From Patescibacteria group bacterium (lineage in GTDB: Bacteria; Patescibacteriota; Minisyncoccia; Phycocordibacterales; UBA2100): DNA of 64,000 nucleotides. Shown in pieces: positions 1,441-59,607 of this stretch. The notes under the pieces were generated by a model that did no database searches, was not told where the DNA came from, and saw only the letters and a program-made list of their open reading frames with translations. How positions within the stretch are numbered: the first letter of the stretch is position 1; every line of letters begins with the position of its first letter. The stretch covers positions 100,406 through 164,405 of the forward strand of contig JBBTSD010000001.1 of the NCBI GenBank assembly GCA_038064835.1, written 5' to 3'. A program made the translations under genes and the position numbers.

Positions 1441-2182
1441 AAAGAGGTGGTGTGTCTTCTGATTTAGGTGATGTGCAGAGGAGGACTCCATAGACAGGTT
1501 GCTCGATACGCGGATCGAGTCCTAAAAGACGGATAACATAGGTGTCATCAAAACCACCCACTGGGCGTGTCATAATCCCCAGTGCGGTTCCTACAAGGGT
1601 AATATTTTGTGCCATGTGCCCCGTCTCAAGAAGGCCTAGAAGATAGGCAAAGTCTCCGTACCGTGCACTCGAACGGTCCCACACCGCTGTGAAAATAAGG
1701 ATGGTAGATGAAAGTGGCGTCATTCCGGTTCGGATTATGCGACGCATTTCAAAATCGTCTGGGAGATCCCAGAGATGTTCCAATGCGTGGTCGCGTGGGT
1801 GGTAGTGAAACACACCAGGTACTTTACCTTCGCGTACGAGACCGAGTATATATGTCTCGATAGGGTAGAGGGCGCCACCAGAGGGATAGGTGCGCGTTGG
1901 TTTTCTGTTTGTTTTTACACCAACCGCATGACCGAAAAGTGTACCGAGTTCTGTGTCAGTGAACGCGCGCGGAATAAGACATTCTCCGGCAGACATACGC
2001 GCGGCCAACACTTCGTCGAGGCGGGTAGTAAGTGGTACGGGATGAGGTAGTGCGATACGAGGCATGCGTGGATATTCCTTATGTTCCCCAGGTAATGCAC
2101 TATCAGAAGATTTGGTCAGTCCAGTGCGTAGAATCCGTGCTTTCCGGATTGATTGATGCACCTGTTGGATAAAACGAGTCAT
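1433..2182 (-). CDS. SagB-type (McbC-like) nitroreductase-fold dehydrogenase
   Basis: The 249-aa ORF carries a PSGGALYPIETY motif characteristic of SagB/ThcOx dehydrogenases. It overlaps the YcaO gene by 4 nt and the downstream gene by 8 nt, consistent with translational coupling. Confidence 0.65.
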   Translation of the reverse strand: MTRFIQQVHQSIRKARILRTGLTKSSDSALPGEHKEYPRMPRIALPHPVPLTTRLDEVLAARMSAGECLIPRAFTDTELGTLFGHAVGVKTNRKPTRTYPSGGALYPIETYILGLVREGKVPGVFHYHPRDHALEHLWDLPDDFEMRRIIRTGMTPLSSTILIFTAVWDRSSARYGDFAYLLGLLETGHMAQNITLVGTALGIMTRPVGGFDDTYVIRLLGLDPRIEQPVYGVLLCTSPKSEDTPPLYE

Positions 2183-3645
2183 GCAAAGGGATGGGGTTCG
2201 TTTGTATAGGGCTCACTTCGCACTCTAAAGCCGAGTCGTTTCGGAACATCGTGTATGCGAGCTCCTCCGATAGGAGGTGTTGCTTCAGTGTAGTGAATAG
2301 GGATTAGCTCAGGAATCACCACCATTTCAATGTGCCAGGGTGTATGGTTTGCTCGGGCTTGAGTAAATGAAACTGACGCGCACTCGTACCCTTGCTCGCT
2401 GCACCAGTGGATAATACGGTCGAGATGCTGTTGCGGTGAATCGCTATCCCATATTTCTGGGCGAAGTGGTTGCTCTTTTCCTGACAAAAGAAATTGCAGG
2501 TGTTTGTGGCGGTCTGCCTGTGCCCAATAGACGAGACGATTACGCTGTCCTGTGTGTCGCACTGTGGCTATGGGGCGACCTTTCCTCTCGTATTTTCTTA
2601 TCTGAGCACGAGCCCCCCTCCTCGCTCGAAGAGCCTCGATAAGTGCCCGCTCAGCGGCGAGTGCGGGGTCACAATCCGACTTGAGGCCAAGGCCAAGTTT
2701 AGGGGCATGGGGCGTAAGGTCTTCCAAAAATGCACCAATGGAATATGTTGGCGCATCACTAACAAGGCGGATGAAATGAGGTTGTAGGCGGTATTGCTCG
2801 CAGAGTGCAACCAATGTAGCTAACGAAGGTCGGCGCTGAACAAGTTCGTGTGTAGGTATGCGCGGAGGTGTAATTTGGTTAAGCCAGGTAAGCATGTATG
2901 CGTCGCGTTCGATGACTTCCAGTGCACCCGAAAGAAGAGCGCATGACTTTTCAGGGTGTGTTGCAAGACCGGTGGTGATAGATGGCCGAATAATAGGCTC
3001 GCGCTGTTCGCCTATCCCACGGACAGCCAGGTTCATGCCGTATCGACTAATTGTTTGCGCAGGCAACCACACCATTTTTTTTGTAATAAGAGATGTTGCG
3101 CGTGTCCATAGAAATAGTGAATCGGATTGGATATGAAATCGTGGATCTTTTTTTCGCTGCTGAGGATTGAAGCTGGCAAAGCGGTCTGGTGTGAGTGCCG
3201 TGCCCTTCCTCTGGATTTCCGATACTGTTGCTCGGGTGGGGGAAACAAGCATGTCGCTCTGTGTAAACCAAATATAGCGTTCAGTTGCCTCCGCTAGTGC
3301 GCGACTAAATGCTGACCGTTCATCAGTTATGTCTCCACCTGCGGCGCGTACTGTGGCACCACCCTGGATATATTCCATGTACCAAAGAGCAAAAGGAGGT
3401 TCGTCCGGAGAATAGGGTGCCGGATAGTACAGTTTGGCAACTCCTGATGCAAACATTTTTTCGGCAATGGAAAAAAGGTCGAGCATGTCGGGACGACCAA
3501 AGGGTACCTCGCTGTCATCTTGGACAAGGTGCGCTCCGAACTGGCGTTCAAGAAATCGTAAGAAATTGATTCGTGCATGTTCAGTACGGTCGCCTCTATA
3601 AAGGCCACGCCAGACAGTCTCAAGGGAGTGGGCACTATGTATCAT
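2179..3645 (-). CDS. ycaO: YcaO-domain protein (ATP-dependent cyclodehydratase / amide-activating family)
   Basis: 488-aa protein with TGLATHPEKSCALLSGALEVIERDA (YcaO ATP-binding signature) and a C-terminal ...YTNEPHPFA proline-rich YcaO tail. Confidence 0.75.
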   Translation of the reverse strand: MIHSAHSLETVWRGLYRGDRTEHARINFLRFLERQFGAHLVQDDSEVPFGRPDMLDLFSIAEKMFASGVAKLYYPAPYSPDEPPFALWYMEYIQGGATVRAAGGDITDERSAFSRALAEATERYIWFTQSDMLVSPTRATVSEIQRKGTALTPDRFASFNPQQRKKDPRFHIQSDSLFLWTRATSLITKKMVWLPAQTISRYGMNLAVRGIGEQREPIIRPSITTGLATHPEKSCALLSGALEVIERDAYMLTWLNQITPPRIPTHELVQRRPSLATLVALCEQYRLQPHFIRLVSDAPTYSIGAFLEDLTPHAPKLGLGLKSDCDPALAAERALIEALRARRGARAQIRKYERKGRPIATVRHTGQRNRLVYWAQADRHKHLQFLLSGKEQPLRPEIWDSDSPQQHLDRIIHWCSEQGYECASVSFTQARANHTPWHIEMVVIPELIPIHYTEATPPIGGARIHDVPKRLGFRVRSEPYTNEPHPFA

Positions 3646-4187: not shown

Positions 4188-5326
4188 GTCCCACTTTAGC
4201 TAGCCAAACTTATCGTATGCAAAAAGACACAATTATTGGCGCAGGGGCAGGAGTTGCAATACTCGTTGGAATTGTTGCGTACGGATGGTATGTCTATGGC
4301 CGAGATGTCCCCGCTGAGAAAAAGCCTTTAAGATACACACATGAAAGGCCGCCAAATGTTGTCCTTGCGAAGGACAACAAGGCTTTTGCTGTTGCTGATA
4401 ATTATTTCAAAAATGGTCGTTTTACTGCCGCGCTCGAGAAATACAACGAAGCTATTCTCAAGGCGCGTAATCCAATTGAAGAGAATCAGATTTTGTACAG
4501 AATTGCATTAACAACAGAGAGACGGGGAAACGCGAAAGAGGCGATCCCCCTCTACAAAGAACTTATCGCAAACCCAGAAGCAATATCTTTCATCAAAGCA
4601 TACTCCGCTCAAGAGCTCGCGCTGATGCTTGTGAGTCCTGAAACTATCCATTTAGCTCCGGATATTTTTTCAGGAGACCCTTATGCCAGTTTTAATACAG
4701 AGGGTAACCGCGCGCTCTCTAATCGAAAGATGTTCGAGTACGCCTCCTCCTTTTACCCACTGGCACTTTCCGAGCTCCGTGTAGCCGATTGGTATGCCGA
4801 ACAGCTTTTAAAACCCGCGGTGCGCAAACCAGTCAGTGCTTCGCATGAATATGTTGGTATTATCGAAGATCGCATGAAAAACGCGGACGCAGACATTACC
4901 CGTACATTTGATAGTCCAAGCGAGAGCGGGTTCCTTGATGAAATATTGACACGCAAAGCTGTAGTGATTGGGAAACTCGCAATAGTCAAAATTGTTTCCC
5001 ACGAGGAGGCCGAGCGGGCTTTTGCAGATGCCTTTAATCTTATCGCAGTTCGTTCCCCAGGGACATCTGCCGACCGATGGATGAGATACTATCATGCAAG
5101 ATACTTGCTGAATGTTCCAAGTAGCGAAACCAGGGTTCGAGACATCATTGCGCCTTTTTACGAGACAAATATATACAAGGATGGAGAGATGAAGACTTTC
5201 TTCAAAAACGAAAGGACCAACAAGCAGGGGCAGAAAGTGTACTTACAAAAAATGGCAACGATAGACTCGGATTTCAAGAAATACTTGCTGGGGTTGGGGT
5301 GGCAACCATCAGACTTCCCAAAGTGA
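4178..5326 (+). CDS. Hypothetical membrane-anchored protein (TTG 4178 or ATG 4217)
   Basis: 382-aa ORF with an N-terminal TM helix (IIGAGAGVAILVGIVAYGWYVY) and helical-repeat-like sequence. No recognisable catalytic motif. Confidence 0.4.
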   Translation: MRVGPTLASQTYRMQKDTIIGAGAGVAILVGIVAYGWYVYGRDVPAEKKPLRYTHERPPNVVLAKDNKAFAVADNYFKNGRFTAALEKYNEAILKARNPIEENQILYRIALTTERRGNAKEAIPLYKELIANPEAISFIKAYSAQELALMLVSPETIHLAPDIFSGDPYASFNTEGNRALSNRKMFEYASSFYPLALSELRVADWYAEQLLKPAVRKPVSASHEYVGIIEDRMKNADADITRTFDSPSESGFLDEILTRKAVVIGKLAIVKIVSHEEAERAFADAFNLIAVRSPGTSADRWMRYYHARYLLNVPSSETRVRDIIAPFYETNIYKDGEMKTFFKNERTNKQGQKVYLQKMATIDSDFKKYLLGLGWQPSDFPK

Positions 5327-27547: not shown

Positions 27548-27698
27548 CCAACATGGGGCCTGCTCAGATGGATGCAGTTCTAGGCGCGCAAGAAACAGAC
27601 GACGAGGCGTACTGAGGTAGTACGACAAGGAGTATGTTTTGAAGCGCAACGAAGAAATGCGCCATGTGTGCAGGCCCCGCATCTGGTATTATGCCTGC

Positions 27699-28286
27699 AT
27701 GAAGCATGAGCCAAAAAGAGTGGTGGTCATTGCTGGTCCGTCAGGGTCCGGCGAAAGCACTTTCACGGAAGAGCTTATGCTTGCATACCCGAATTTTACT
27801 CGCACAGTTTCCGCAACCACACGGGCTCCCCGCGGAAACGAGAAGGATGGCGTGGACTATTATTTTATGACCAAGGAGAAGTTTTTTGAAGAAGTGCAAA
27901 ATGGCAACATCCCCGAGCATGTGCTCGTGCGGGCACGCGACGCCTACTACGGTACTTATTTGCCCGACCTCACCAGGCGATTGGCATCAGGAAAAACAGT
28001 TGTTGCCAACACCGATTTGTCTGGAGCGGAGTATTACAAAAAAAACTACAATGCGGTGACCGTTTTCATAAAACCAAAATCAATTTTTTCTCTGTACAAT
28101 CGTTTGGTGCATCGCGACCCCACTATGCCCAAGGAAGAAGTGCTTACCCGCGTCATGAGCGCTGTCCAAGAAATACTTGAGGCTGAAAGCAACTATGATC
28201 ATGTGGTATTTACAGGGGACAATGAATTTGCAGAAACCCTCATTCACATTGTCGATAAACTGAAGCATGAAGGGTATGTCGTTTAG
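27699..28286 (+). CDS. gmk: Guanylate kinase
   Basis: P-loop VIAGPSGSGESTF with a guanylate-kinase-like fold (YYF, TTR). Confidence 0.7.
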   Translation: MKHEPKRVVVIAGPSGSGESTFTEELMLAYPNFTRTVSATTRAPRGNEKDGVDYYFMTKEKFFEEVQNGNIPEHVLVRARDAYYGTYLPDLTRRLASGKTVVANTDLSGAEYYKKNYNAVTVFIKPKSIFSLYNRLVHRDPTMPKEEVLTRVMSAVQEILEAESNYDHVVFTGDNEFAETLIHIVDKLKHEGYVV

Positions 28287-28881
28287 TCACCATGTCATCC
28301 GTCCTGGGGTGGTTATCGTTGCAGGTCCTACGGGGGTGGGTAAGGACAGTATTGTCCGAGAAATTATCGCACAATGCGAGGGGTGTGTAGAACTAATCAC
28401 TGCCACGACCAGAAAGCGTCGCGAAAATGAAGGGCAGGGCGAATATCATTTTTTTACAAACGAGGTATTTGACAAGGCACTCGCCTCTGGTGAAATACCC
28501 GAACACTGGACACATCCAAGCGGTGCCCGTTACGGCACCTACTTGCCCTATCTCACGGAACAACTTGGAAAAGGGAAGGTGATTATAGGGGATATGAATA
28601 TTGTGGGGGCACGGTACATGAAGGAGAATCACCGCGCGCTGACACTATTTATTCTCCCTCCGGACTTCTCGGTGCTACGAGAACGAATAATCAAACGAGG
28701 GCGTCATGATCTTTCGGAAAAAGAGATAGATGCGCGACTTCGGCTTGCGCAGCAAGAGATTGCCGAGCACTCGCCTTGGTACGATTATCGTGTAATAAAC
28801 AGAGAAAACCAGCTCGATACTGCAGTGCAAGAAGTCCTTGAGATTCTGACAAAAGAAGGCTATTGTGTCAGTGATGTCTGA
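28267..28881 (+). CDS. Guanylate-kinase-like paralog with divergent P-loop
   Basis: VIVAGPTGVGKDSIVREI...TTRKRRENEGQGEYHFF. It overlaps the gmk stop and is a tandem duplicate. Confidence 0.55.
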   Translation: MKGMSFSHHVIRPGVVIVAGPTGVGKDSIVREIIAQCEGCVELITATTRKRRENEGQGEYHFFTNEVFDKALASGEIPEHWTHPSGARYGTYLPYLTEQLGKGKVIIGDMNIVGARYMKENHRALTLFILPPDFSVLRERIIKRGRHDLSEKEIDARLRLAQQEIAEHSPWYDYRVINRENQLDTAVQEVLEILTKEGYCVSDV

Positions 28882-30282: not shown

Positions 30283-33117
30283 ATGGAGCCGCGTTTTACA
30301 CCTCCCGTTGAAACTTCACCGTATGTGGCGCAACCACAGAAATTTCGTACCCCCGAAGAAGAGATTGCATATCTGCGTTCACGCATTGCCGAGAAAGAAA
30401 AAGAACTTGGTGCAAAGCCCACCCCGTTTGAACATGAGCGAATTGCAAAACGCGAGATTGTACAGTACGGAGAGGAAACCCCAAGCCAGGTATTGCACGA
30501 AACAGTCATTGTTGCCGAGCATGACGCGATGCGACAAGCGCTTCAACTAGAACCTGAAGAGCATGATACTCAGGTAGACGAACTGCTCCAGTTTGTTTCC
30601 GAGCGAGGCGTACGAAATGCTCTATCTGTTGCAGCGAAATTAAACAATGCGCACATCATGGACGACTTGCATCGTGCACTGGTGCGTTACATTGCCGAAG
30701 GTCTTCCTGTGGGTGGAAGTGTGCTCACTAATCCACTCGAATCAGGACAGACATGGCGCGCATTGCATATGACACTGTATGAAGTACAGCCACAAGGAGC
30801 ATTCAAAGAGGAAGATCAACAAAAAGGACTTGAGCAGATGCTTAAGTCGATGGAGCAGTTATATGCAGGGTTGCTAGCTATTTCTAGCGGAAATACTGAG
30901 AGCAAACACAATGTCTTTTCGCTCGAAATTGCTGTGGCCCAAGGGTCAGAGGACGCGGTATTCTACATAGCCGTTCCTAGTAAGAAGAAGGATCTTTTCG
31001 AGCGCCATGTGCTTTCCATTTTCCCGAACGCTCGCCTTATCGAACGGCGTGGAGATTACAATCTCTTTGATCATGACGGCTATCACAGCGCCGCGTATGC
31101 CACACTGGCCGAGCACCCCGCGCTCCCGGTACGGACTTACGAGGAATTTCAACATGACCCGATGAATGTGCTCTTGTCTGCCTTTTCAAAACTCAAAAAA
31201 CACGGCGAAGGTGCAGCACTGCAGATTGTGGTGGGGAACGAAGGTGACCGCTACAACAAATACTACAAAAAGATTCTTGGCGAACTGCACAAAGGAAAAA
31301 AGTTTAAAAAAGCAATTAAAGTAGCGGAGTCCAAAATAGGACAATTGCTGGACGATGCGGCAAAGGGGCTATTTCAGAGCGGAGAGAAGAAACCCGAAGA
31401 AAATCATGGTGAACAAGAAATGACCGAGCGCGTTGGGAAGAAATTAAAATCACGGATCGTACCCGTCAATATACGCATCGTGGCTTCGGCGCAAAATGAA
31501 GGCAGGGCACGGGACATATTGGCAAATTTGGCCTCGACTTTCAATCAATTCGAAGATCCCCAAGGCAATCACATTCTTTTTAAAGAAGCGTCTCGATGGA
31601 CTTTGCAGGGTGTTTTGCATAACTTTGTGATGCGTATTCCCGAGCACTCCCGAGCACTCCCGCTGAATTTTTCGGAGCTGACCACTCTGTACCACCTGAC
31701 CGCTGAAGGGGTGCGCACTAGTCGCGAACTCAAGCAGTCGCGAGCAAAGCAGTCGCCCGCACCTACTGATATGCCGGAAGAAGGAATTGTGCTCGGCTTC
31801 AACGACTTTGGCGGCGAGAAAAAAGACATCTACTTCAGCAAAGAAGATCGCCTGCGCCATCTGTATGTCATCGGGCAAACAGGTACCGGTAAGACCAACA
31901 TCCTTAAGAACATGATCATCCAAGATATTAAGAATGGCGAAGGTGTGTGCTTTATTGATCCACACGGCTCTGATATCCAGGATATTATTGCGTCGGTCCC
32001 ACCCGAGCGCGAGAAAGACCTCATCTACTTTGACCCAGGGCATTACGAGCGACCCATGGGACTCAACATGCTTGAGTACGATCCAAAATATCCGGAGCAA
32101 AAAACTTTCCTTGTAGACGAGATGCTCGGAATTTTCCGGAAGCTATACAAGGATGTCCCCGAATCTGTCGGCCCCGCATTCGAACAGTACTTCCGCAACT
32201 CCGCACTCTTAGTGATGGAAGATCCATCCACAGGAAATACGATGGTGGATATTACGCGTGTTTTCGCAAACGAACAATTCAGAAATCTTAAAATATCGCG
32301 ATGCCCCAATCCGCTCGTGGTGCAATTCTGGCGTGACATCGCCACGAAAACGCAAGGTGAACAATCCCTTGAAAACTTCGCGCAGTATGTAACCAATAAA
32401 TTTGACATCTTTCTAGCGAACGAAATTATGCGACCGATTGTTGGACAGGAGAAGTCAGCCTTTGACTTCCGAGACATTATGGACAACCGCAAGATATTGC
32501 TCATCAATCTCGCGAAGGGTCGTCTCGGCGAGATGAACTCATCACTCCTCGGGCTCATCTTTGTGGGCAAGTTTCTTAACGCAGCACTCTCGCGTGTAGA
32601 TTTGGTCGGTCGGGCAGATATGCACCCGTTTTATATGTATATTGACGAGTTCCAAAACTTCACCACGCCATCAATCGCTACAATCCTTTCCGAGGCGCGC
32701 AAATACCGACTGGTGCTCAATGTGGCACACCAATTCATTGATCAGCTGACCGAAGACATTCGCGACTCTATTTTCGGCAATGTGGGCACAAAATGTGTGT
32801 TTCGTGTAGGCGAGAAAGATTCCGAGTTTTTGGAAAAGATGTTCCAGCCAGAGTTTAAGGCAACCGACATCATGCACCTTAACAACTTCAACGGATATAT
32901 GTCGCTTTTGGTGAAGGGGAAGCCGGTGAAGCCATTTAACATAGAAACCTACCCGCCTCCAAAAACTGATTTTGGCCGTGTGGACACATTGAAACATATG
33001 TCGTACGAGAAATTCGGTCGGCCGCGCGAAGAGGTCGAAGCCGAAATCAAGGCGCGATATACGACGAAGCCATTACCGATCGGCAATCTGGGGGCTGAAT
33101 CCTACGGTTCATTTTAG
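30283..33117 (+). CDS. Large (944 aa) P-loop NTPase of the TraD/VirD4/HerA-like (AAA_10/DUF87-type) class with a roughly 500-aa N-terminal helical domain
   Basis: Walker A VIGQTGTGKTN, Walker B FYMYIDEFQNF, and CFIDPHGSD. These are typical of FtsK/HerA/TraD coupling-type ATPases. The N-terminal half has no recognisable motif. Confidence 0.5.
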   Translation: MEPRFTPPVETSPYVAQPQKFRTPEEEIAYLRSRIAEKEKELGAKPTPFEHERIAKREIVQYGEETPSQVLHETVIVAEHDAMRQALQLEPEEHDTQVDELLQFVSERGVRNALSVAAKLNNAHIMDDLHRALVRYIAEGLPVGGSVLTNPLESGQTWRALHMTLYEVQPQGAFKEEDQQKGLEQMLKSMEQLYAGLLAISSGNTESKHNVFSLEIAVAQGSEDAVFYIAVPSKKKDLFERHVLSIFPNARLIERRGDYNLFDHDGYHSAAYATLAEHPALPVRTYEEFQHDPMNVLLSAFSKLKKHGEGAALQIVVGNEGDRYNKYYKKILGELHKGKKFKKAIKVAESKIGQLLDDAAKGLFQSGEKKPEENHGEQEMTERVGKKLKSRIVPVNIRIVASAQNEGRARDILANLASTFNQFEDPQGNHILFKEASRWTLQGVLHNFVMRIPEHSRALPLNFSELTTLYHLTAEGVRTSRELKQSRAKQSPAPTDMPEEGIVLGFNDFGGEKKDIYFSKEDRLRHLYVIGQTGTGKTNILKNMIIQDIKNGEGVCFIDPHGSDIQDIIASVPPEREKDLIYFDPGHYERPMGLNMLEYDPKYPEQKTFLVDEMLGIFRKLYKDVPESVGPAFEQYFRNSALLVMEDPSTGNTMVDITRVFANEQFRNLKISRCPNPLVVQFWRDIATKTQGEQSLENFAQYVTNKFDIFLANEIMRPIVGQEKSAFDFRDIMDNRKILLINLAKGRLGEMNSSLLGLIFVGKFLNAALSRVDLVGRADMHPFYMYIDEFQNFTTPSIATILSEARKYRLVLNVAHQFIDQLTEDIRDSIFGNVGTKCVFRVGEKDSEFLEKMFQPEFKATDIMHLNNFNGYMSLLVKGKPVKPFNIETYPPPKTDFGRVDTLKHMSYEKFGRPREEVEAEIKARYTTKPLPIGNLGAESYGSF

Positions 33118-48037: not shown

Positions 48038-51000
48038 GTGCCTAAGATTTTAAAATTACTTTGCTTATTACTGCTAGTAATCACCACACTCGGGCCCGTG
48101 GGTGTTTTGTATGCTGCTCCAGGTGTGCCAACCATCTTGAGTTTCCAAGGGAGACTTACTGATTCATCAGGTAATCTTTTGGGGGGCTCTGGGACAGGCT
48201 ATTATTTCAAGTTTTCAATATGGGATTCACCGACGGTTGGTTCAGGAAATCGTCTCTGGCCGACAAGTGCGCCAGGAAGTGTTACAACGACAGTCCGGCA
48301 AGGAGTGTTTACTGTTAATGTTGGCGACACGGCAAATGGATTCCCCGACGCACTTACTTATGCGTTTGATTCTGAAACTATCTACCTACAAGTCGAGGTA
48401 TCATCAAACGGATCATCGTACGAAACCCTTTCCCCTCGTCAGCAAATTGCCGCATCAGCATTTGCGCGCGTCGCGGGAGCGGTAAGTGGGACGGGGCAAT
48501 CAGCAATTGGAACAACAACGCCACTAGCGAATACGGTCCTCACTGTTGAGGCGACATCATCTATCGCGACACCGCTCAGTATTCGCGGGGCTCCGAACCA
48601 GTCTGGCAGTCTTTTAACTATTTTGAGTTCTGTAGGATCGTCGCTTTTCTCGATCGGTAGTTCAGGTAGTCTGACAGCGCTCGCGGGCGCACTCTTCGGG
48701 AATGCTTCATCGACTCTTTTTTCAACACTTGACGGTTTGTATGTTGGACGGACGGCAACAACTACTATCCTTGGTTCGGCAACTTCTACTTTCGGCGCAG
48801 GTGTCTCCACTACCCGCCTCGAAACCACTTCCGCCTCGTCAACTATCAACGGCCTTCGTGTCACTGGGAACGGCTTGCAGATCGCCAGTCTCGTAAACTG
48901 TGCTGAAGCACTGGAAACAGATGCAAGCGGCAACATCGTCTGTGGCACTGATGCCACTGCCGCAGGTGCTGCGGATCCGTTCACTTTCGCAACGAACTAC
49001 GGCATAACCAACGCCGCCACTTCGTCACCGCTGTGGGCATTAGCAGGCATCAATGCATCCTCAACATCACATTTCGCCACTTTTGACGCTGTTGCAGGAA
49101 CCACTACCAACTTCGCCATCTCAAACATCGCCAGCTCTCTTCTTAAAACAAATGCAACAGGAGGAATCGTCCCTGCTATCGCTGGTACTGATTACCTCAC
49201 CAGCTCAAGCATATTCAGCTACCTCTTCCCATCAAATGCCACCAGTACTGCACTCTCATTCACCGGAGGCATCACTACCACCAACGCCTCCACCACCAAC
49301 CTCTCCGGCAACACTCTCGCCATCGGCGGCACCGCCACCACCACCATTGCAAACACCGGAGCCATCACTACACCAACCTTGACGATAGGTACGCTTACGG
49401 GTTTTCTGAAAGCAACAGCAGGAGTTGTTGCGGCTGCAGCCGTCAATGTGGCGGCAGATATTACTGGCATTCTCCCCACCGCAAACGGCGGCACCGGCTG
49501 GGGTAATGTACAAGCAAACACAGTTCTTCTTGGTAATGGTACTGGTGCGCTTGCCACCACTACAGCGGGTGCGAACGGGCAGGTCCTCGCCCTCGTCGGT
49601 GGTGTCCCAACATGGACTGCAACAACTACCTTATCCACTATCTCAGGAACCCTTGGTGTCGGTACTGGCGGTACCGGACAGACTACTTTTGCATATGGTC
49701 TGCTATCTTCACCTGGCGGTACCGACGCTCTTACTACTATCAGCACCTCGTCGCTTGGTCTGCTTACTACTGATATTACCGAAGGATCGAATCTCTACTA
49801 CACAACCACTCGTTTTGATAATCGCTTGTCAGCAACTACCTCACTTCCAAATATCACTACACTTACAAATCTTTCGATATCTGCGACACAACTCAGTAAT
49901 TTCGGTACCCCGTTCTACCAATTCTTTTCTGCAACTACGACAGACGCCCTTACACAAGGGAGTACCAACAAGTACTACAGCGACCCGCTCGTCCAAGCCT
50001 TTGTGCACGCGTCTTCTACTATTCCGAAAACATATACCGCAAACACTTTTACGGGGGCAAATACTTTCTCTTCGGCGTTAACTCTCAGTGGTCTGAACGG
50101 CCCTCTTGATGCAAGGAACGGTGTCGTTGGTGCTACCACTTCAGTTGGCGTTCTTTATGGAGGTACCGGACTCACCTCTGCGCCGTCAAACGGAAGCATC
50201 CTGCTAGGGAACTCTTCGGGTGGCTACTCAATTTCAGCCACCTCCTCGCTCGGTATCGCACTTGCTGACACCACCGGCACACTTGCGGTTGCACGAGGTG
50301 GCACAGGAGCAACCACACTCTCCGACCTCATCACCCTTGGCACACACACCTCTGGCAACTACCTCGCCACGCTCACCAATGCCGGCGGTCTCACCATCGC
50401 GAACTCAGGAGCAGAGACTGCAGCAGTCACCGCAGCACTCGATCTCACCAATGCAAACACCTGGACAGGGAAGCAGAACTTCTACGGCACTGCCTCATCA
50501 ACACTGTTCTCGGCGAACCGCGCTTATTTCGGAGGGACAGCGACAACATCAATCTCTGATGCGGGTGTACTCACTTTGGCCGGCCTTACCTCGACCCTAC
50601 TTAAAGCAGACAACAGTAATAATCTTGTCGCCGCTGTGGCAGGTGTTGATTATTCAAACTTCGCATATCTGTTTCCCGGCAACGCCACGACGACGGCACT
50701 CACTTTTTCGAACGGGATTTTATCATCTGCCTCCACCACAATCGGAGCAGGAACACAGGCGACAGGGCTCACCGTATCGGGAGGAGCAACGACGACGGGA
50801 AACTTGATTGTGCAGGGAACAGGAACATCGACATTTTCAGGTGGTCTGCAGGCAACGAATGTATACGCAACTGCCACATCAACGATGGCTGGAATCATAT
50901 CGCAGTCGATTGTTCCTAATGGGGATGCAACCTACGATTTAGGGTCTGCTACGAATCGTTTTAGAGACCTCTACCTATCTACCGCATCACTTCACCTTGA

Positions 51001-52885
51001 ATCGACAGCGGGCGAAACTGGTTCAGCAAAACAATGGAAGTTTGGTATCGATACCGATAATGGACAACAGACGGGAACCTCAACAGGATTTTTCCGTATT
51101 CAAGAAGGGAGCTCAGACATGTTTTATATAAATCATGGCGGCCAAATTGGTGTGGGAGTCAAAGATCCTCGTGCACGGTTGCACACAAAAGGAAACCCGT
51201 TCCTTTCAGGGTTTAGCGCAGGGACTATCTCTAGCTCGGGCACGGCTGTAACAGGAAGCGGTACAGGTTTCTTGTTCGGTTCGAACAAAATTAATGTGGG
51301 GGATCAGATTCTTTCGGATGGACAGATTCGTACTGTGACATCCGTGGTGAACAATACGAGTCTTGTTGTTGACTCGGCATTTTCCCCTGCACTAAGTGCG
51401 CACACTTACCAATTTCAGCAACCAATAGCACGATTTGACACCAGTGCAGGTGACACGCGTTTTATTATCGGCCCTGGTGGAAATGTGGGCATTGGTGATT
51501 TAAATCCACAAGGTCTTTTCTCTGTCGGTGCAGGTGATGCGTTCTTTATAAATTCACTTGGAACGGTTGCGAGTGGCACATGGAATGGACAGCGAATTGG
51601 TGCGCTCTACGGCGGTACGGGCTCCACAACACTTTCAGGAATCCTGATCGGCAACGGTGTTAATCCAGTTGGGACGCTTACTGTTGGGTCAGGCCTTTCG
51701 CTTACGGGCACAACGCTCTCGACGAGCGGTGCGGGAATCACCTCAATCGGCTCGTCTGGTCAGCAACAGACAGGTGGAACGCAAGCATTTGCGACATCAA
51801 CAAGTGTAACAAATGGGCTTGTCTCAGGGATAACAATCGTTGGAAATAGCAATACTCACACATTCACTCCATCACTGTCAGGAGTACTGACTGTTGCAGG
51901 AGGCGGCACCGGAGGCACCTCGTTCTCCTACGGTCTCGTCTCCTCACCAGGAGGCACCAGTGCACTCACCAACATCGCGACCTCCTCGCTCGGTCTCCTC
52001 ACTACCGATGTCGCTGAAGGCACCAACCAGTACTACACAGACACCCGTGTGAACACCTATATCAACGCCTCCACCACCATTCCCAAGACATACACTGCCA
52101 ACACATTCACCAACACCAACTCGTTCACCAGTGCACTGATGGCAACAGGAGGATTCCTCTCAAGCGCATCATCCACCATCAATGGCTCACTCGTCGTCAC
52201 CGGTACTGCCACCTCCACCACGCTCGCCGTCACCGGAGTCACCTCATCACTCTTGAAAACAAACTCACTCGGACAAGTCGTCGCCGCAGTCGCTGGCACT
52301 GACTACACAAACTTCGGCTACCTCTTCCCCGCAAATGCCACCACCACCGCACTCTCATTCACCGGAGGCATCACTACCACCAACGCCTCCACCACCAACC
52401 TCTCCGGAAACACCCTCGCCATCGGCGGCACCGCCACCACTTCTATATCAAACACCGGCGTCCTCACACTCCCCGTTGCACTCAGTGCGTCATCAGGTGG
52501 TACGGGCATCTCGTCCGTCTCTGCCGCCCAAATCTTGCTGGGGAACTATGCGGGCACTGGCTGGCAACAACTCGCCACTTCCTCCCTCGGTCTCCTCACC
52601 ACGAATGTCGCAGAGGGAAGCAATCAATATTTCACCAACGCACGCGTACAAACATATCTCGACTCCGTCACCAAAGGATTCTTCTTTGCCACCACTTCCG
52701 CTGACTACTGGGAGACACAGCAGACAGCGCGCTCTGCAGACGACCTCACCAACAACAGTATTGAAGATCTCTCTAGTGAACGAGTAAAGTCGGCTGTCGA
52801 GACTTATCCCGAGTTTTATCTTGTCAAAAGCGACTGGTCTCTCGAAAACATTGTTGCGAAAATTAAAGAAATGCTTGTCGTCTAG
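48038..52885 (+). CDS. Giant (1615 aa) secreted Gly/Thr/Ser/Ala-rich repetitive surface protein (fibre/adhesin-like)
   Basis: Signal peptide MPKILKLLCLLLLVITTLGPVGVLYAAPG. Three copies of a module ...TTISTSSLGLLTTD(I/V)(T/A)EG(S/T)N(L/Q)YYT.TR... and two near-identical copies of ...DYLTSSSIFSYLFPSNATSTALSFTGGITTTNASTTNLSGNTLAIGGTATT.... Recurrent GGTG motifs. Confidence 0.6.
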   Translation: MPKILKLLCLLLLVITTLGPVGVLYAAPGVPTILSFQGRLTDSSGNLLGGSGTGYYFKFSIWDSPTVGSGNRLWPTSAPGSVTTTVRQGVFTVNVGDTANGFPDALTYAFDSETIYLQVEVSSNGSSYETLSPRQQIAASAFARVAGAVSGTGQSAIGTTTPLANTVLTVEATSSIATPLSIRGAPNQSGSLLTILSSVGSSLFSIGSSGSLTALAGALFGNASSTLFSTLDGLYVGRTATTTILGSATSTFGAGVSTTRLETTSASSTINGLRVTGNGLQIASLVNCAEALETDASGNIVCGTDATAAGAADPFTFATNYGITNAATSSPLWALAGINASSTSHFATFDAVAGTTTNFAISNIASSLLKTNATGGIVPAIAGTDYLTSSSIFSYLFPSNATSTALSFTGGITTTNASTTNLSGNTLAIGGTATTTIANTGAITTPTLTIGTLTGFLKATAGVVAAAAVNVAADITGILPTANGGTGWGNVQANTVLLGNGTGALATTTAGANGQVLALVGGVPTWTATTTLSTISGTLGVGTGGTGQTTFAYGLLSSPGGTDALTTISTSSLGLLTTDITEGSNLYYTTTRFDNRLSATTSLPNITTLTNLSISATQLSNFGTPFYQFFSATTTDALTQGSTNKYYSDPLVQAFVHASSTIPKTYTANTFTGANTFSSALTLSGLNGPLDARNGVVGATTSVGVLYGGTGLTSAPSNGSILLGNSSGGYSISATSSLGIALADTTGTLAVARGGTGATTLSDLITLGTHTSGNYLATLTNAGGLTIANSGAETAAVTAALDLTNANTWTGKQNFYGTASSTLFSANRAYFGGTATTSISDAGVLTLAGLTSTLLKADNSNNLVAAVAGVDYSNFAYLFPGNATTTALTFSNGILSSASTTIGAGTQATGLTVSGGATTTGNLIVQGTGTSTFSGGLQATNVYATATSTMAGIISQSIVPNGDATYDLGSATNRFRDLYLSTASLHLESTAGETGSAKQWKFGIDTDNGQQTGTSTGFFRIQEGSSDMFYINHGGQIGVGVKDPRARLHTKGNPFLSGFSAGTISSSGTAVTGSGTGFLFGSNKINVGDQILSDGQIRTVTSVVNNTSLVVDSAFSPALSAHTYQFQQPIARFDTSAGDTRFIIGPGGNVGIGDLNPQGLFSVGAGDAFFINSLGTVASGTWNGQRIGALYGGTGSTTLSGILIGNGVNPVGTLTVGSGLSLTGTTLSTSGAGITSIGSSGQQQTGGTQAFATSTSVTNGLVSGITIVGNSNTHTFTPSLSGVLTVAGGGTGGTSFSYGLVSSPGGTSALTNIATSSLGLLTTDVAEGTNQYYTDTRVNTYINASTTIPKTYTANTFTNTNSFTSALMATGGFLSSASSTINGSLVVTGTATSTTLAVTGVTSSLLKTNSLGQVVAAVAGTDYTNFGYLFPANATTTALSFTGGITTTNASTTNLSGNTLAIGGTATTSISNTGVLTLPVALSASSGGTGISSVSAAQILLGNYAGTGWQQLATSSLGLLTTNVAEGSNQYFTNARVQTYLDSVTKGFFFATTSADYWETQQTARSADDLTNNSIEDLSSERVKSAVETYPEFYLVKSDWSLENIVAKIKEMLVV

Positions 52886-52911: not shown

Positions 52912-53400
52912 ATGACTGTCGAGATTCTCAACGACTATCGATGCTCGTGTGGGAAGCTTCTTTTTCGCGGGATGGTACTCACGGGGAGTATTGAAATCAA
53001 ATGTCGCTATTGCAAACGAGTGGAAACAGTCGATGGTTTGATGGAAAAAGGATCTGACCCTGACCGCTACACCCTCATAATCGGAAGAGAAGGGGAAATT
53101 TACAATTCGACACAAGAAGCCTCGCGGGCTCTCGGATATCTGCATTCAGAGCTATCTGCAAGGCGTGTTCAAGATATTGTCTTATTGCCTCATGACGAGG
53201 CATACCAATCTATTCTTCAAAAGCTTGATGGTGGTCAGGTATCAGTCCTTTTCCATTCGTTTGTGAAGCATAAAAATCGTGCCATGATTCCTGTGCAAAT
53301 AACAGCGTGTTTATTTTCAACTCCAGATGGTCAGTGTATCCTTTTTAATATAGAGCATAAAACGGTACGGAACAGAGCACATCGGCTTCAAGAAGCATAG
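52912..53400 (+). CDS. Com-like zinc-ribbon plus PAS-like domain protein
   Basis: N-terminal CSCGKLLF...CRYCKRV (Mu Com-type 4-Cys ribbon), then a PAS-like fold segment. Confidence 0.4.
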   Translation: MTVEILNDYRCSCGKLLFRGMVLTGSIEIKCRYCKRVETVDGLMEKGSDPDRYTLIIGREGEIYNSTQEASRALGYLHSELSARRVQDIVLLPHDEAYQSILQKLDGGQVSVLFHSFVKHKNRAMIPVQITACLFSTPDGQCILFNIEHKTVRNRAHRLQEA

Positions 53401-53451
53401 TTTTTTTGTCCGACAAAGTAAAAACACCCGCTTGCGCGGATGTTTTTACTT

Positions 53452-53617
53452 TGTGGAGATGGCGGGAATTGGTCACCAGTATTTTTCCTGACGGAAAAAT
53501 CTCGCGACCCCGGCTCGCGGTTTTTGCCTTTCCTACGCGTTGCTCCGGAAAACAAAAACAACGCTGCGCCTTTCAATTCCCGTCGAAAGGTGCGCAGGCA
53601 CCTTTCTCCATCTCCCC
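53452..53617 (-). ncRNA. Truncated tandem ssrA-like copy (tmRNA-like 5' domain plus duplicated 3' acceptor end and terminator)
   Basis: Minus strand 5'-GGGGAGATGGAGAAAGGTGCCTGCGCACCTTTCGACGGGAATTGAAAGG... (tmRNA 5' motif UUCGACGGGA) ... CCAATTCCCGCCATCTCCACA-3'. The last 50 nt, including terminator aaaaacatccgcgcaagcgggtgttttt, are near-identical to the main ssrA 3' end. The T-stem is not complementary. Confidence 0.4.
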
Positions 53618-53655
53618 ATACGCAAAAACACCCGCTGGCGCGGATGTTTTTACTT

Positions 53656-54045
53656 TGTGGAGATGGCGGGAATTGAACCCGCGTCCAAAGGAGGAGTAGC
53701 TGATCGGTGTACACAAGGTAGTTCATTTGATTTTGTTTAAACGCAGGATGTGTGAAATGAGCAAAATCATCACGCGTCGAGCTTTCTTTCTTTAGTCAGT
53801 ATCTTGAAGCATCAGACACTGACGAATCCGGCATATATGACATGTACGGCATCTTGTCGGATGAAGATGAGTACACGGCCGCTTAGGCTAATGCGTAAGC
53901 GAAGCTGAGATCTTTCACCTGAATCGGTGAAAGGAACCCCCGTGCGGTTTTATTTGCACTTAGATTTTGAACAGTTTAAAGAAGATGTTCACTTCTCTTG
54001 TGCCTTTCAAGCTCTCGAATCTCCCTGTCGAAGCCAATCATCCCC
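53656..54045 (-). ncRNA. ssrA: tmRNA (SsrA), standard one-piece form
   Basis: Minus strand 5'-GGGGAUGAUUGGCUUCGACAGGGAGAUUCG... and 3'-...GGACGCGGGUUCAAUUCCCGCCAUCUCC-A. The acceptor stem GGGGAUG/CAUCUCC has G3-U70. The T-arm is GCGGG-UUCAAUU-CCCGC. Both ends closely resemble the E. coli tmRNA ends as recalled. An internal frame ...DLSFAYALA-UAA (stop revcomp at 53883-53885) is a plausible tag. smpB lies 0.6 kb upstream on the same strand, and a terminator follows at 53625-53652. Confidence 0.7.
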
Positions 54046-54176
54046 CGTGAGATACCAAATCTGTTGTGCGTTGAGTCTCGAGCATAACGGTAATGTGTGT
54101 TCTCTTTTACTCTGCATTATGTCGGGCTTACGAAGTCCGACAGGTTGTTTAATATCTCATGGGGAAGGACTCGCTA

Positions 54177-54205
54177 CCATGTTGGACTTCGTAAGTCCAA
54201 CATGG
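54177..54205. repeat. Perfect 13-bp-stem hairpin ccatgttggactt-cgt-aagtccaacatgg (GGACTT...AAGTCC family)
   Basis: Related hairpins at 54121-54141 (gtcgggcttacgaagtccgac), 54599-54619 (gttcgactt-cgt-aagtcgaac) and 39521-39533 (gggactttagtcc). Confidence 0.5.
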
Positions 54206-54300
54206 TACGGGTGGCGAGTTGTAGCGAGTTGTAGAAAACGAATGCTTGAGTGTGGAGAGGAGCTGTGGCGGCTCCTCCCTGTAGTGCTGCGTGGGCTGGG

Positions 54301-54534
54301 TTAGCGGAACAAGTGTCCCGCGAGGCCGAGGGGGCTGCCCGCGTAGGCGGCATCCTCGTCATCGCGCGTGGGCTCGATGAAGGCGCGAGCCTTCGCGCTC
54401 CCGCCGCCGAGCGTGTCGTAGCGGGCGTCACGAGTGGCGTAGGTGGCCTTGCGGGCCTCCTCGCGCAGGTCGCGTTCGACAGCGCGTTTCCAATCGCGGT
54501 CCATGCAGTAACCAACATTCCCATTCATAGTCAT
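54301..54534 (-). CDS. Small (77 aa) GC-rich hypothetical protein in a hairpin-flanked mini-cassette between smpB and ssrA
   Basis: AAGGAG RBS 8 nt upstream of ATG 54534. Body about 65% GC. Sequence MTMNGNVGYCMDRDWKRAVERDLREEARKATYATRDARYD... has no recognisable motif. Confidence 0.35.
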   Translation of the reverse strand: MTMNGNVGYCMDRDWKRAVERDLREEARKATYATRDARYDTLGGGSAKARAFIEPTRDDEDAAYAGSPLGLAGHLFR

Positions 54535-54598
54535 TGCAAACACTCCTTGGTTCACTTGGTTGCCACACTTAAGCATTCGTTTATTGTCAAAAATCTAT

Positions 54599-54621: not shown

Positions 54622-55062
54622 CTATTGTTTTGAAGCTCGGCGCATCGCACGATCTTCGTCGCGCTTCTTGATATCCTGCCGCTTATCATACTTCTTTTTT
54701 CCGCGGGCGATACCCAGAGAGAGCTTCAAATTTCTCCCCTTATTATACACCGAAAGTGGCACTATTGTCAATCCCCCTGTTCGTTCAGCTTCAGAAACCT
54801 GTTCAATTTGGCTTTTCGATAAGAGAAGCTTTCGAGGGCGCTCAGAATCGTAGGTCTTTGGGGCATTGGCTACCTGCCAAGCAGGGATGGTAACCCCTAC
54901 CAAAAAAGCCTCGCTACCGCGTGCGATTATACGCCCACCGTCCAAGGAGCCCTGTCCTTTGCGGATGGATTTGACTTCATATCCGAAAAGTACCAAACCC
55001 GCCTCGATTGTTTCGAGGATTTCGTAATTCAGTCGCACTTTTTTGTTTTCCAAGAGGGCCAT
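54622..55062 (-). CDS. smpB: SsrA-binding protein SmpB
   Basis: MALLENKKVRLNYEILETIEAGLVLFGYEVKSIRKGQGSL... Start at ATG 55062 (the listed ORF is longer). The K/R-rich C-terminal tail is typical of SmpB. Confidence 0.85.
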   Translation of the reverse strand: MALLENKKVRLNYEILETIEAGLVLFGYEVKSIRKGQGSLDGGRIIARGSEAFLVGVTIPAWQVANAPKTYDSERPRKLLLSKSQIEQVSEAERTGGLTIVPLSVYNKGRNLKLSLGIARGKKKYDKRQDIKKRDEDRAMRRASKQ

Positions 55063-59384: not shown

Positions 59385-59607
59385 GCGCCCGTAGCTCAAT
59401 GGTAGAGCGCTAAGCTTACTGTGGCTAACGAGCGTCGATTGAAAATCTGTGTGGGCGCATAGCTCAATGGTAGAGCGCCAAGCTTATACCTTGGTGGTTC
59501 TAGGTTCGAATCCTAGTGCGCCCACACAGATTTTCAATTCGCGCGAGTAACGACACAGGATTGAAAATATACCTTAGTGGTTCCAGGTTCGAGTCCTGGC
59601 GGGCGCA
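59385..59607 (+). tRNA. tRNA-Val(UAC)-like gene split by a 151-nt insertion in the anticodon loop (5' part 59385-59419; 3' part 59571-59607)
   Basis: 5' GCGCCCG-TA-GCTC-AATGGTA-GAGC-G-CTAAG-CTTAC | ... | AC-CTTAG-TGGTT-CCAGG-TTCGAGT-CCTGG-CGGGCGC-A. Acceptor, D, anticodon and T stems are all fully complementary across the insertion. Confidence 0.45.
59453..59524 (+). tRNA. Complete tRNA with anticodon UAU (tRNA-Ile(UAU)-like), nested inside the split tRNA
   Basis: GGGCGCA-TA-GCTC-AATGGTA-GAGC-G-CCAAG-CTTATAC-CTTGG-TGGTT-CTAGG-TTCGAAT-CCTAG-TGCGCCC-A, a canonical cloverleaf. Flanked by a 17-18-bp inverted repeat (59436-59452 / 59525-59541). Confidence 0.6.

Follow-up and report, generated by a model that had tools for sequence, protein, structure and literature searches.

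A direct repeat of a gene's 3' end, which starts at the T-loop and lies in the orientation of the gene, and the tandem accretion of such units are the classical hallmarks of the islands that target transfer RNA (tRNA) and transfer-messenger RNA (tmRNA) genes. Integron attC sites and the CTX-phi attP hairpin used by XerCD are reportedly recombination sites made of folded single strands. Group I introns occupy the T-loop of tmRNA genes in Bacillota and of tRNA genes in Patescibacteria (PMC13011429; bioRxiv 10.1101/2020.01.27.920355). Here we analyse a small folded, non-coding unit located directly behind ssrA, the tmRNA gene, in a stretch of 64,000 nucleotides (nt) from a Patescibacteria genome (assembly GCA_038064835.1, contig JBBTSD010000001.1, positions 100,406 to 164,405), which is referred to as the window. 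Homologous units were found behind many other tRNA and tmRNA genes. With a probability of about 60% we regard them as an apparently undescribed Patescibacteria family of folded non-coding elements which attach to the T-loops of many tRNA and tmRNA genes. The features of the locus, in the order in which the minus strand is read, are given below (DR1 and DR2, first and second direct repeat; P1 to P5, paired regions).

54622..55062, minus strand: smpB, 146 amino acids (aa) from MALLENKK...; Pfam PF01668, 2.4e-43; the product is called on the public contig.
53655..54045, minus strand: ssrA (tmRNA), complete one-piece gene with the tag ANKTARGFLSPIQVKDLSFAYALA followed by a stop; ARAGORN and Rfam RF00023.
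53624..53675, minus strand: DR1, ssrA from T-loop C56 (53675) to the 3' end, plus terminator hairpin and T-run; repeat search, terminator-like site at 53641-53628.
53574..53617, minus strand: 5' module of the element with the P1, P2 and P3 strands; minimum free energy (MFE) fold.
53608-53615, minus strand: P1 5' strand GGAGAUGG, antisense to the acceptor 3' strand.
53585-53606, minus strand: P2 hairpin GAAAGGUGC-CUGC-GCACCUUUC.
53574-53581, minus strand: P3 5' strand GGGAAUUG, antisense to the T-loop and the T-stem 3' strand.
53472..53573, minus strand: conserved core, a three-way junction with GAAA linker, P4, G-rich linker and P5; alignment A2 with RNAalifold, model R1.
53512-53570, minus strand: P4 with the internal loop GCA/GA.
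53472-53509, minus strand: P5, with ...GUGAC at its end; predicted to be closed by C56 of the tail.
53420..53471, minus strand: tail or DR2, the second ssrA 3' end from C56 (53471), without the T-stem 5' strand; repeat search and junction analysis.
53413..53454, no strand assigned: palindromic terminator of the bidirectional type after the tail, ACAAAGUAAAAACAUCCGC / GCGGGUGUUUUUACUUUGU, with 19-nt arms; inverted repeat, 95% complementary.

The stretch 53655-54045 is a tmRNA gene by its full-model score, its G3.U70 pair, its T-arm, its hydrophobic ...ALA tag and its smpB partner. RF00023 matched this stretch on the minus strand over model positions 1-374 of 374 with 128.3 bits (gathering score 47, E=8e-50), and ARAGORN called a tmRNA at 53657-54045 on the same strand with the tag ANKTARGFLSPIQVKDLSFAYALA, which ends in ...SFAYALA and a stop. 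The 5' GGGGAUG of the acceptor pairs with CAUCUCC to give G3.U70, the T-arm is intact (GCGGG-UUCAAUU-CCCGC), and CCA is not encoded (...CUCCA-CAAAG). The gene of the tmRNA partner protein, smpB, lies directly upstream on the same strand, and the best identities of SmpB, 61-67%, place the organism in Patescibacteria, near Paceibacterota/Kaiserbacteria. An initial annotation of the window had recognised the full minus-strand tmRNA with its G3-U70 pair, T-arm and ...FAYALA tag, with which both ARAGORN and RF00023 agree; it had regarded the lack of any tmRNA score as fatal to this assignment, and 53655-54045 does score as tmRNA. It was also right to set aside two open reading frames (ORFs), 53388-53726 on the minus and 53406-53699 on the plus strand, as spurious: they overlap RNA-type sequence only, and the public gene calls are empty there.

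A 204-nt insert follows ssrA and is bounded by a 52-nt direct repeat with 1 mismatch (98% identical; 53420-53471 versus 53624-53675, start-to-start spacing 204 nt). The repeat runs from T-loop C56 through the ssrA 3' end to the terminator hairpin and T-run, and it confirms the duplicated 3' end plus terminator that had been reported from the first reading. The second unit starts with GGGGAGATGG at 53617 and ends with CAATTCCCGCCATCTCCACA. Since the T-stem 5' strand is replaced by ...GGUGAC, the T-arm cannot form, so that the earlier remark on a T-stem unable to pair was correct as well. The MFE fold of the second unit has -80.5 kcal/mol (z = -7.2), and 0 of 200 shuffles was as stable; this fold is not due to chance. 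In it the tail pairs with P3 at 53464-53471 and with P1 at 53455-53462 and is followed by the second terminator copy. P1 forms 7/7 pairs in a 7-nt scan and 7/8 in an 8-nt register, P3 forms 9/10 pairs with its own tail, and the window copy ranks among the best for the match of P1 and P3 to the own tail. The terminator at 53413..53454 faces the convergent 162-aa gene which ends at 53400. The insert is non-coding, and the 45 large window ORFs scanned with Pfam in search of a mobilising enzyme turned out to be housekeeping genes only, none of them a recombinase, a reverse transcriptase or a transposase; neither an integrase gene nor an integrase remnant was seen in the window.

The 52-nt repeat could suggest that part of ssrA was duplicated locally in tandem, or that the unit is a functional mini-tmRNA; the initial annotation had considered both. 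The 5' end of the unit, GGGG...UUCGAC, superficially resembles a tmRNA 5' end, and a weak match to the permuted tmRNA model (tmRNA_permuted, RF04321; 26.3 bits) covers the real 3' end and P1. However, this score is below the gathering score of 47, and the match is limited to model positions 36-93 and extends from the real 3' end over the terminator to the acceptor-complementary GGGGAGAUG; thus a permuted tmRNA was rejected. In the segment 53418-53617 neither RF00023 nor RF00005 gave a match even at E<=10, and ARAGORN found one tmRNA only and was silent on the unit. The interior of the unit has no similarity to the tmRNA body, the UUCGAC motif is not conserved in the homologues, the same core stands behind ordinary tRNAs, the T-arm and the tag frame are absent, and the acceptor pair is A3-U70 and not G3.U70. 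A truncated ssrA copy and a mini tmRNA-like RNA are therefore very improbable and, for practical purposes, already refuted. Rfam 15 at E<=10 returned only sub-threshold noise on the unit.

An assembly artefact, that is a collapsed or mis-joined repeat, would fit the breaks inside DR2 that are seen in short contigs of other samples. Contigs L205-L211, short ones of the same species from independent short-read assemblies, end approx. 61-63 nt after the 162-aa gene, inside DR2, thus the units systematically fragment assemblies at tRNA and tmRNA genes. An identical structure is nevertheless present on a 330,809-bp contig of a metagenome-assembled genome (GCA_964361175.1), and homologous units occur in dozens of independent assemblies. 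One short contig (L209), placed from contig coordinates and unaligned, appears to run on for about 107 nt after the flanking gene ends, i.e. into the element. Exact look-ups of the two flanking proteins, made to compare an empty with a filled site in the same species, were uninformative: they returned the same arrangement only, plus short contigs breaking in the repeat; the same species occurs in Hainich groundwater assemblies. An artefact is scarcely credible.

The distribution of the units was followed in 80 SmpB-anchored loci of related Patescibacteria. Behind ssrA a unit is present in about 13 of the 80 and absent from the closest relatives (L001, L003, L004, L005 and L007). Many of the 80 loci contain, right after the tmRNA terminator, sequence which is complementary to their own tmRNA 3' end and co-varies with that end (in L042, for example, CCACTTCCAC and then GTGGAAGTGG), and independent MFE folds led to the same architecture in each species. 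A covariance model, R1, was built from 32 units. It matched behind the tmRNA 3' ends of L002, L008, L014, L029, L035, L047, L052 and L078; the scores of L002, L008, L014, L047 and others were 65-83 bits, and the four named here were outside the seed. The window copy, whose sequence belonged to the seed, scored 85 bits (E=1e-20) at 53460-53586 on the minus strand and was the sole match within the window. The same 5' module with a different or partial core was present in L036, L038, L042, L054 and L055.

A metagenome scan with a conserved-core pattern, which fixes part of the sequence, yielded more than 120 stretches. Of 77 loci accepted as real, 47 follow a same-strand tRNA or tmRNA gene whose end lies at most 130 nt upstream, and these host genes represent 16 amino-acid identities and tmRNA; a tRNA or tmRNA on the opposite strand within the same distance was found in 0 of the 77. 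Several of the remaining loci are tmRNA 3' ends which ARAGORN had missed, second or third tandem units, or orphans. The match on a viral contig and three others were discarded as chance matches in GC-rich coding sequence.

On the gene strand the units, which are approx. 110-200 nt long, consist from 5' to 3' of an optional terminator-like hairpin, P1, P2, P3, GAAA, P4, a G-rich linker, P5 and the tail. P1 is antisense to the acceptor 3' strand and P3 to the T-stem 3' strand and the T-loop, while the tail runs from C56 of the host gene to its 3' end and directly follows the GUGAC with which P5 ends. P2 is a 9-bp hairpin at a fixed position, for which 36 distinct stems were counted in 40 copies, and all 9 of its pairs covary; its loop is CUGC in 27 of the 40. 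P4 has a conserved GSA/GA internal loop, and one G.U pair of P5 is invariant in 32/32 sequences. RNAalifold on alignment A2 gave 27 consensus pairs, 18 of them with compensatory changes. The paired cells amounted to 93.6%, compared with 76.8% in shuffles (0 of 500 reached the observed value) and with 31-47% when the partner was slid, and the covariation score was 0.46 versus 0.15 in the controls. P3 forms on average 8.8 of 10 pairs with its own tail and 7.1 with other tails. For P1 the corresponding values are 5.1 and 3.3 of 8 pairs, and at least 7/8 pairs are reached in 17.5% of the copies with their own tail versus 0.8% with other tails. In 36/36 units the gene-sense strand is more stable than its complement, by a mean of 10 kcal/mol, thus it is the sense strand, be it RNA or single-stranded DNA, that carries the fold.

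The window copy has every feature of the proposed new T-loop C56 element family, namely the three-way junction, the GAAA and G-rich linkers, the invariant G.U pair, GUGAC directly before C56 and the antisense 5' segments. Two further structural candidates were rejected. A kissing interaction of the P2 loop CUGC with GCAG/GCGG of the P4 internal loop was looked for by eye, and the partner positions were inconsistent between copies. A K-turn in P4 appears improbable judging from the sequence, because the GSA/GA loop is unlike the consensus of a 3-nt bulge with tandem G.A pairs.

The position of the junction is exact. In about 40 independent copies the repeat starts at C56, immediately before which the gene reads ...GGTT and the element ...GTGAC or ...CTGAC. 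The right end of the repeat is variable, from the gene end to approx. 30 nt or more beyond it, at times running into a further partial unit (L086, L101, L160). As the repeat copies do not differ, no point within them can be singled out as the true crossover; the fixed feature is the point where element-specific sequence meets tRNA sequence.

The units are distributed patchily, both among relatives and among tRNA genes. An identical P2 was found beside tRNAs Ser, Val and Arg, and near-identical P4 variants beside Ala, Gly and Val, thus retargeting between tRNAs has evidently occurred. One locus (L085) carries three tandem units of two core families; since its units come from different families, duplication cannot have produced the array. 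Two units each were present in L160 and L115. Orphan units without an intact host gene (L089, L104, L127) have kept their P1/P3 pairing. In L142 a terminator stands between DR1 and the element and none follows DR2, which means that the unit brought its own terminator. Insertion has taken place repeatedly and independently, and the tandem arrays of different core families together with the orphan copies indicate that the units are mobile.

This geometry bears on another suggestion of the initial annotation, the scar of an integration or excision at the ssrA 3' end. The unit would then be the decayed remnant, lacking an integrase and similar to a cis-mobilizable element (CIME), of an island or prophage which a tyrosine integrase had inserted with a crossover in the T-loop. 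A direct repeat on the gene strand, the mark of integrase-type islands, is present in the window as the 52-nt repeat and is general in the family; the repeat begins at the T-loop and has the orientation of the gene, the units accrete in tandem, and the ssrA 3' flank appears to be a hotspot of selfish DNA in relatives, where LAGLIDADG-type ORFs were found (L003, L007). However, the more than 60 copies are of about one small size, and none of those examined has a coding remnant. Their interior is a conserved, co-varying fold and not decaying DNA, and one junction is common to 16 tRNA identities and tmRNA; we know of no integrase family with such a range of host genes. There was no real match in 2.9 million viral contigs (1 chance match), nor in phage or plasmid records. 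What stands of the suggestion is the insertion geometry at the gene 3' end with the junction in the T-loop at C56. A one-off scar of a classical island does not hold, since a covarying unit of approx. 110-200 nt recurs behind many tRNA and tmRNA genes and an integrase was not seen in the window; this explanation is improbable and already disfavoured. A phage or plasmid origin of the unit was likewise rejected: blastn against 50,697 phage and 72,556 plasmid records returned nothing, and the sole match among the viral contigs of IMG/VR was due to chance.

The fold itself could also belong to a resident non-coding RNA gene which benefits the host. Such an RNA would mimic the top half of a tRNA, would share the transcript of the tRNA or tmRNA, from which RNase P and RNase Z would release it, possibly with a CCA tail added, and would have a cellular job, e.g. 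titrating or assisting an enzyme that binds tRNA ends; its spread would be a side effect of recombination between shared T-loops. The strong covariation, the invariant G.U pair and the invariant junction nucleotides agree with this, as do the sense-strand bias in all 36 units, the orphans which keep P1/P3 pairing without a host gene, the tails which in some cases end in CCA, the lack of a terminator between gene and unit in 19 of 36 copies, and the stacking of P1 and P3 like an acceptor/T-stem helix ending at the discriminator. On the other hand, the patchy occurrence (about 13 of 80 ssrA loci, and none of the closest relatives named above), the tandem arrays of different families that one gene can hold and the fact that the host gene is not fixed are hardly what a resident gene would show. 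Moreover, the window copy lies behind a terminator, a promoter-like site was not found for it, and its A3-U70 pair, which is not G3.U70, means that it is no alanine acceptor. We consider the resident gene rather unlikely.

We thus prefer a family of elements attaching to T-loops, and infer the way in which they move and what they do as follows. A unit which already carries the 3' end of the gene would insert by one crossover (Campbell type), or by a duplicative event of equivalent effect, inside the identical 56-76 segment. The host gene would stay intact, as it would receive a replacement 3' end and often a terminator too, and the original 3' end, displaced, would become the tail of the element. 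In the sense-strand RNA, co-transcribed or made by read-through, or in single-stranded DNA, P1 and P3 would clamp the tail and so close the junction into a long helix imitating the acceptor/T-stem half of a tRNA. This helix and the invariant junction may serve as a handle for a factor encoded elsewhere, either a recombinase or nuclease (movement) or tRNA-end-processing enzymes (maturation), or both. The element plays no part in tmRNA function. Target-primed reverse transcription, snap-back synthesis, double-strand-break repair and RecA-driven insertion were weighed as mechanisms, and the data do not decide between them.

Several observations speak against the T-loop element family. The terminator-like hairpin is present between gene and unit in 17 of 36 copies, i.e. 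in about half, and in the window a terminator separates ssrA from the unit, for which a promoter-like site was not found. P1 is weak or absent in many copies, which would also fit slow compensatory evolution of a resident RNA gene, and the proposal does not account for the match of the antisense segments to every new host tRNA. The conservation of the core sequence is partly built in by the pattern used for the scan (the covariation is not). Neither a circular or excised form nor an empty and filled pair of the same locus was seen. An autonomous relative with the same ends was absent from approx. 160 loci, the viral contigs and the phage and plasmid records, among which no dedicated search for split ends was made, and a partner enzyme was not identified either.

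A more specific form of the proposal is tentative, and we are doubtful about it: the unit may be a new mobile element free of protein genes, whose P1/P3 guide picks the segment from the T-loop to the 3' end of a given tRNA or tmRNA gene. Its tRNA-like helix would permit excision, and possibly circularisation, by tRNA-processing enzymes, or would show a folded single-strand copy of the target to a host recombinase. If this were true, integration would be guide-directed and retargetable, at one position (55/56) of the most conserved loop in biology.

The units also differ in their cores. A second core family, ...ACCUUUUCC...GGAAAAGGUGUACAG and then the hairpin AUCCUGUAAGGAUC, shares the 5' module (P1, CUGC hairpin, P3) and the position behind tmRNA. 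Its sites, in locus coordinates on the gene strand, are as follows.

L036, approx. 4990-5130, gene strand: second core family.
L054 and L055, approx. 4950-5080, gene strand: second core family.
L085, approx. 285-410, gene strand: second core family.

A third variant of the P5 base was seen in L052 and L078, and these core variants suggest a superfamily with exchangeable cores. In L098 an inverted element core (...CGCGACCCCGGCTCG...) stands directly after the tail of a forward element, just past DR2 (approx. 620-720 in oriented coordinates); the segment before it, GCGGCAGGATTTGAA, is antisense and lacks P2.

Other features were noted on both sides of ssrA. In two of the closest relatives homing-endonuclease ORFs of the LAGLIDADG type lie directly behind the tmRNA gene on the opposite strand (L003 5666-6118, minus strand; L007 4713-5264, minus strand). 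With Pfam PF00961 the former scored 30.1 bits, above the cut-off of 23.1, and the latter 21.8 bits, just under it, and the ssrA 3' flank appears to be a hotspot of selfish DNA in this lineage. These endonucleases were considered as a nuclease acting on the units in trans, and no link to the units could be shown. Between smpB and ssrA in the window there are two related, near-perfect hairpins, 54119-54142 (loop TTACGAAG) and 54175-54207 (loop TTCGTAAG), both inside or beside a 91-aa ORF (54301-54576) without a Pfam match. A small repeated element is one possible reading of them, and a regulatory or terminator structure upstream of ssrA is another.

On the other side a 1615-aa ORF (48038-52885, plus strand) without any Pfam match is followed by the 162-aa ORF (52912-53400), for which only a sub-threshold hint of a PAS fold was obtained (18.4 bits versus 23.1); both converge on the ssrA locus. 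The window also contains a tRNA-Ile with the anticodon UAU at 59453-59525 on the plus strand (ARAGORN; Rfam, 77 bits), behind which no copy of the element was found and whose 3' end is overlapped by an ORF starting at 59516. A tRNA-Ile with UAU is, as far as is known, an uncommon bacterial solution for decoding AUA. A YcaO cyclodehydratase gene lies beside that of a nitroreductase-family protein (1433-3645, minus strand), such pairs are a usual mark of azoline-forming peptide-modification clusters, and to find one in a reduced genome is unexpected. Weak TraG/VirD4 coupling-protein domains were found in a 944-aa protein (30283-33117, plus strand), which is encoded amid housekeeping genes (methionine aminopeptidase, nucleoside diphosphate kinase), and two guanylate-kinase paralogues of 215 and 204 aa are adjacent and overlapping at 27639-28881 on the plus strand.

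The finding is real and more interesting than the initial annotation proposed. Elements able to settle at the T-loops of ssrA and of nearly any tRNA gene, with the gene left unbroken, would represent a new way of life for a selfish or regulatory RNA on essential genes. Genomes of Patescibacteria (also called the candidate phyla radiation, CPR) are tiny, and the cell depends on an intact copy of every host tRNA gene in the loci examined. Should targeting be directed by the antisense segments, the units would represent a compact, reprogrammable insertion system guided by RNA or single-stranded DNA without a protein encoded in cis, of interest for the biology of mobile elements and possibly as a tool. 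If instead the unit is a processed tRNA-like RNA, it would be a new, widespread class of non-coding RNA in a poorly understood phylum. In practice the units give rise to false ORFs and interrupt assemblies of short reads at tRNA genes, and an annotation may take them for duplicated or pseudo-tRNA and tmRNA genes. No description of the element was found in the literature, with the core sequence included as a query; the literature coverage was incomplete, and a prior description is possible.

Among the known systems, the islands, prophages and CIMEs of tRNA and tmRNA genes ('traffic at the tmRNA gene') have the repeat geometry of the element. Like them it inserts at the 3' end, is flanked by a direct repeat from the T-loop on, leaves an intact gene, has a fixed orientation and piles up in tandem. 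Unlike them it is 100 to 1000 times smaller and carries neither an integrase nor another gene, it has a conserved co-varying fold as its interior and segments antisense to its own repeat, and its single junction (55/56) extends over 16 tRNA identities and tmRNA; viral contigs and plasmids yielded no copy. It is no miniature inverted-repeat transposable element either, as its repeat of approx. 11-56 nt or more has one fixed and one variable end, and its inverted repeat lies between the 5' module and the tail and not at the termini.

With the group I introns of T-loops it has in common that a structured element is placed at the T-loop of the same class of genes, in a phylum where such introns abound, and that an internal sequence pairs with the downstream 'exon'. 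In contrast to an intron, it leaves the host gene uninterrupted, since the full 3' end precedes it, and a terminator can lie inside the would-be intron. The element is also far smaller than the familiar group I introns. A group I intron (RF00028) in the T-loop was rejected because the gene is complete upstream, no group I Rfam model matched at E<=10, and the unit, which is too small for such an intron, ends in C (...GUGAC) and not in G. The two-piece, circularly permuted tmRNA shows a similar order of T-arm, acceptor 3' strand, loop and a strand like the acceptor 5' strand, but here a complete one-piece tmRNA is present and the unit has no coding piece.

The likeness to attC and to CTX-phi attP, which is drawn from general knowledge, would lie in inverted target-like copies that fold on one strand into a duplex imitating the target, in a protruding feature (P2 in the element), and in a recombinase that is not encoded by the element. 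The element differs by targeting the tRNA T-loop rather than attI, attC or dif, and by its additional conserved three-way junction. The IS110 bridge RNA, the guides of IS200/IS605 and the primer-binding site of long-terminal-repeat retroelements share with it a conserved scaffold with variable segments complementary to the target. The element has no DEDD recombinase, TnpA or reverse transcriptase encoded in cis, its antisense segments are paired in cis with its own tail, and its architecture is different. An IS110-type bridge RNA or guide-RNA element was rejected on these grounds, as the window has no recombinase and the antisense segments are helical strands paired with the tail and not guides in an internal loop. 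The resemblance to the retroviral primer-binding site extends to position, as the antisense stretch of the element, approx. 17 nt long, covers the same 3'-terminal region of the tRNA.

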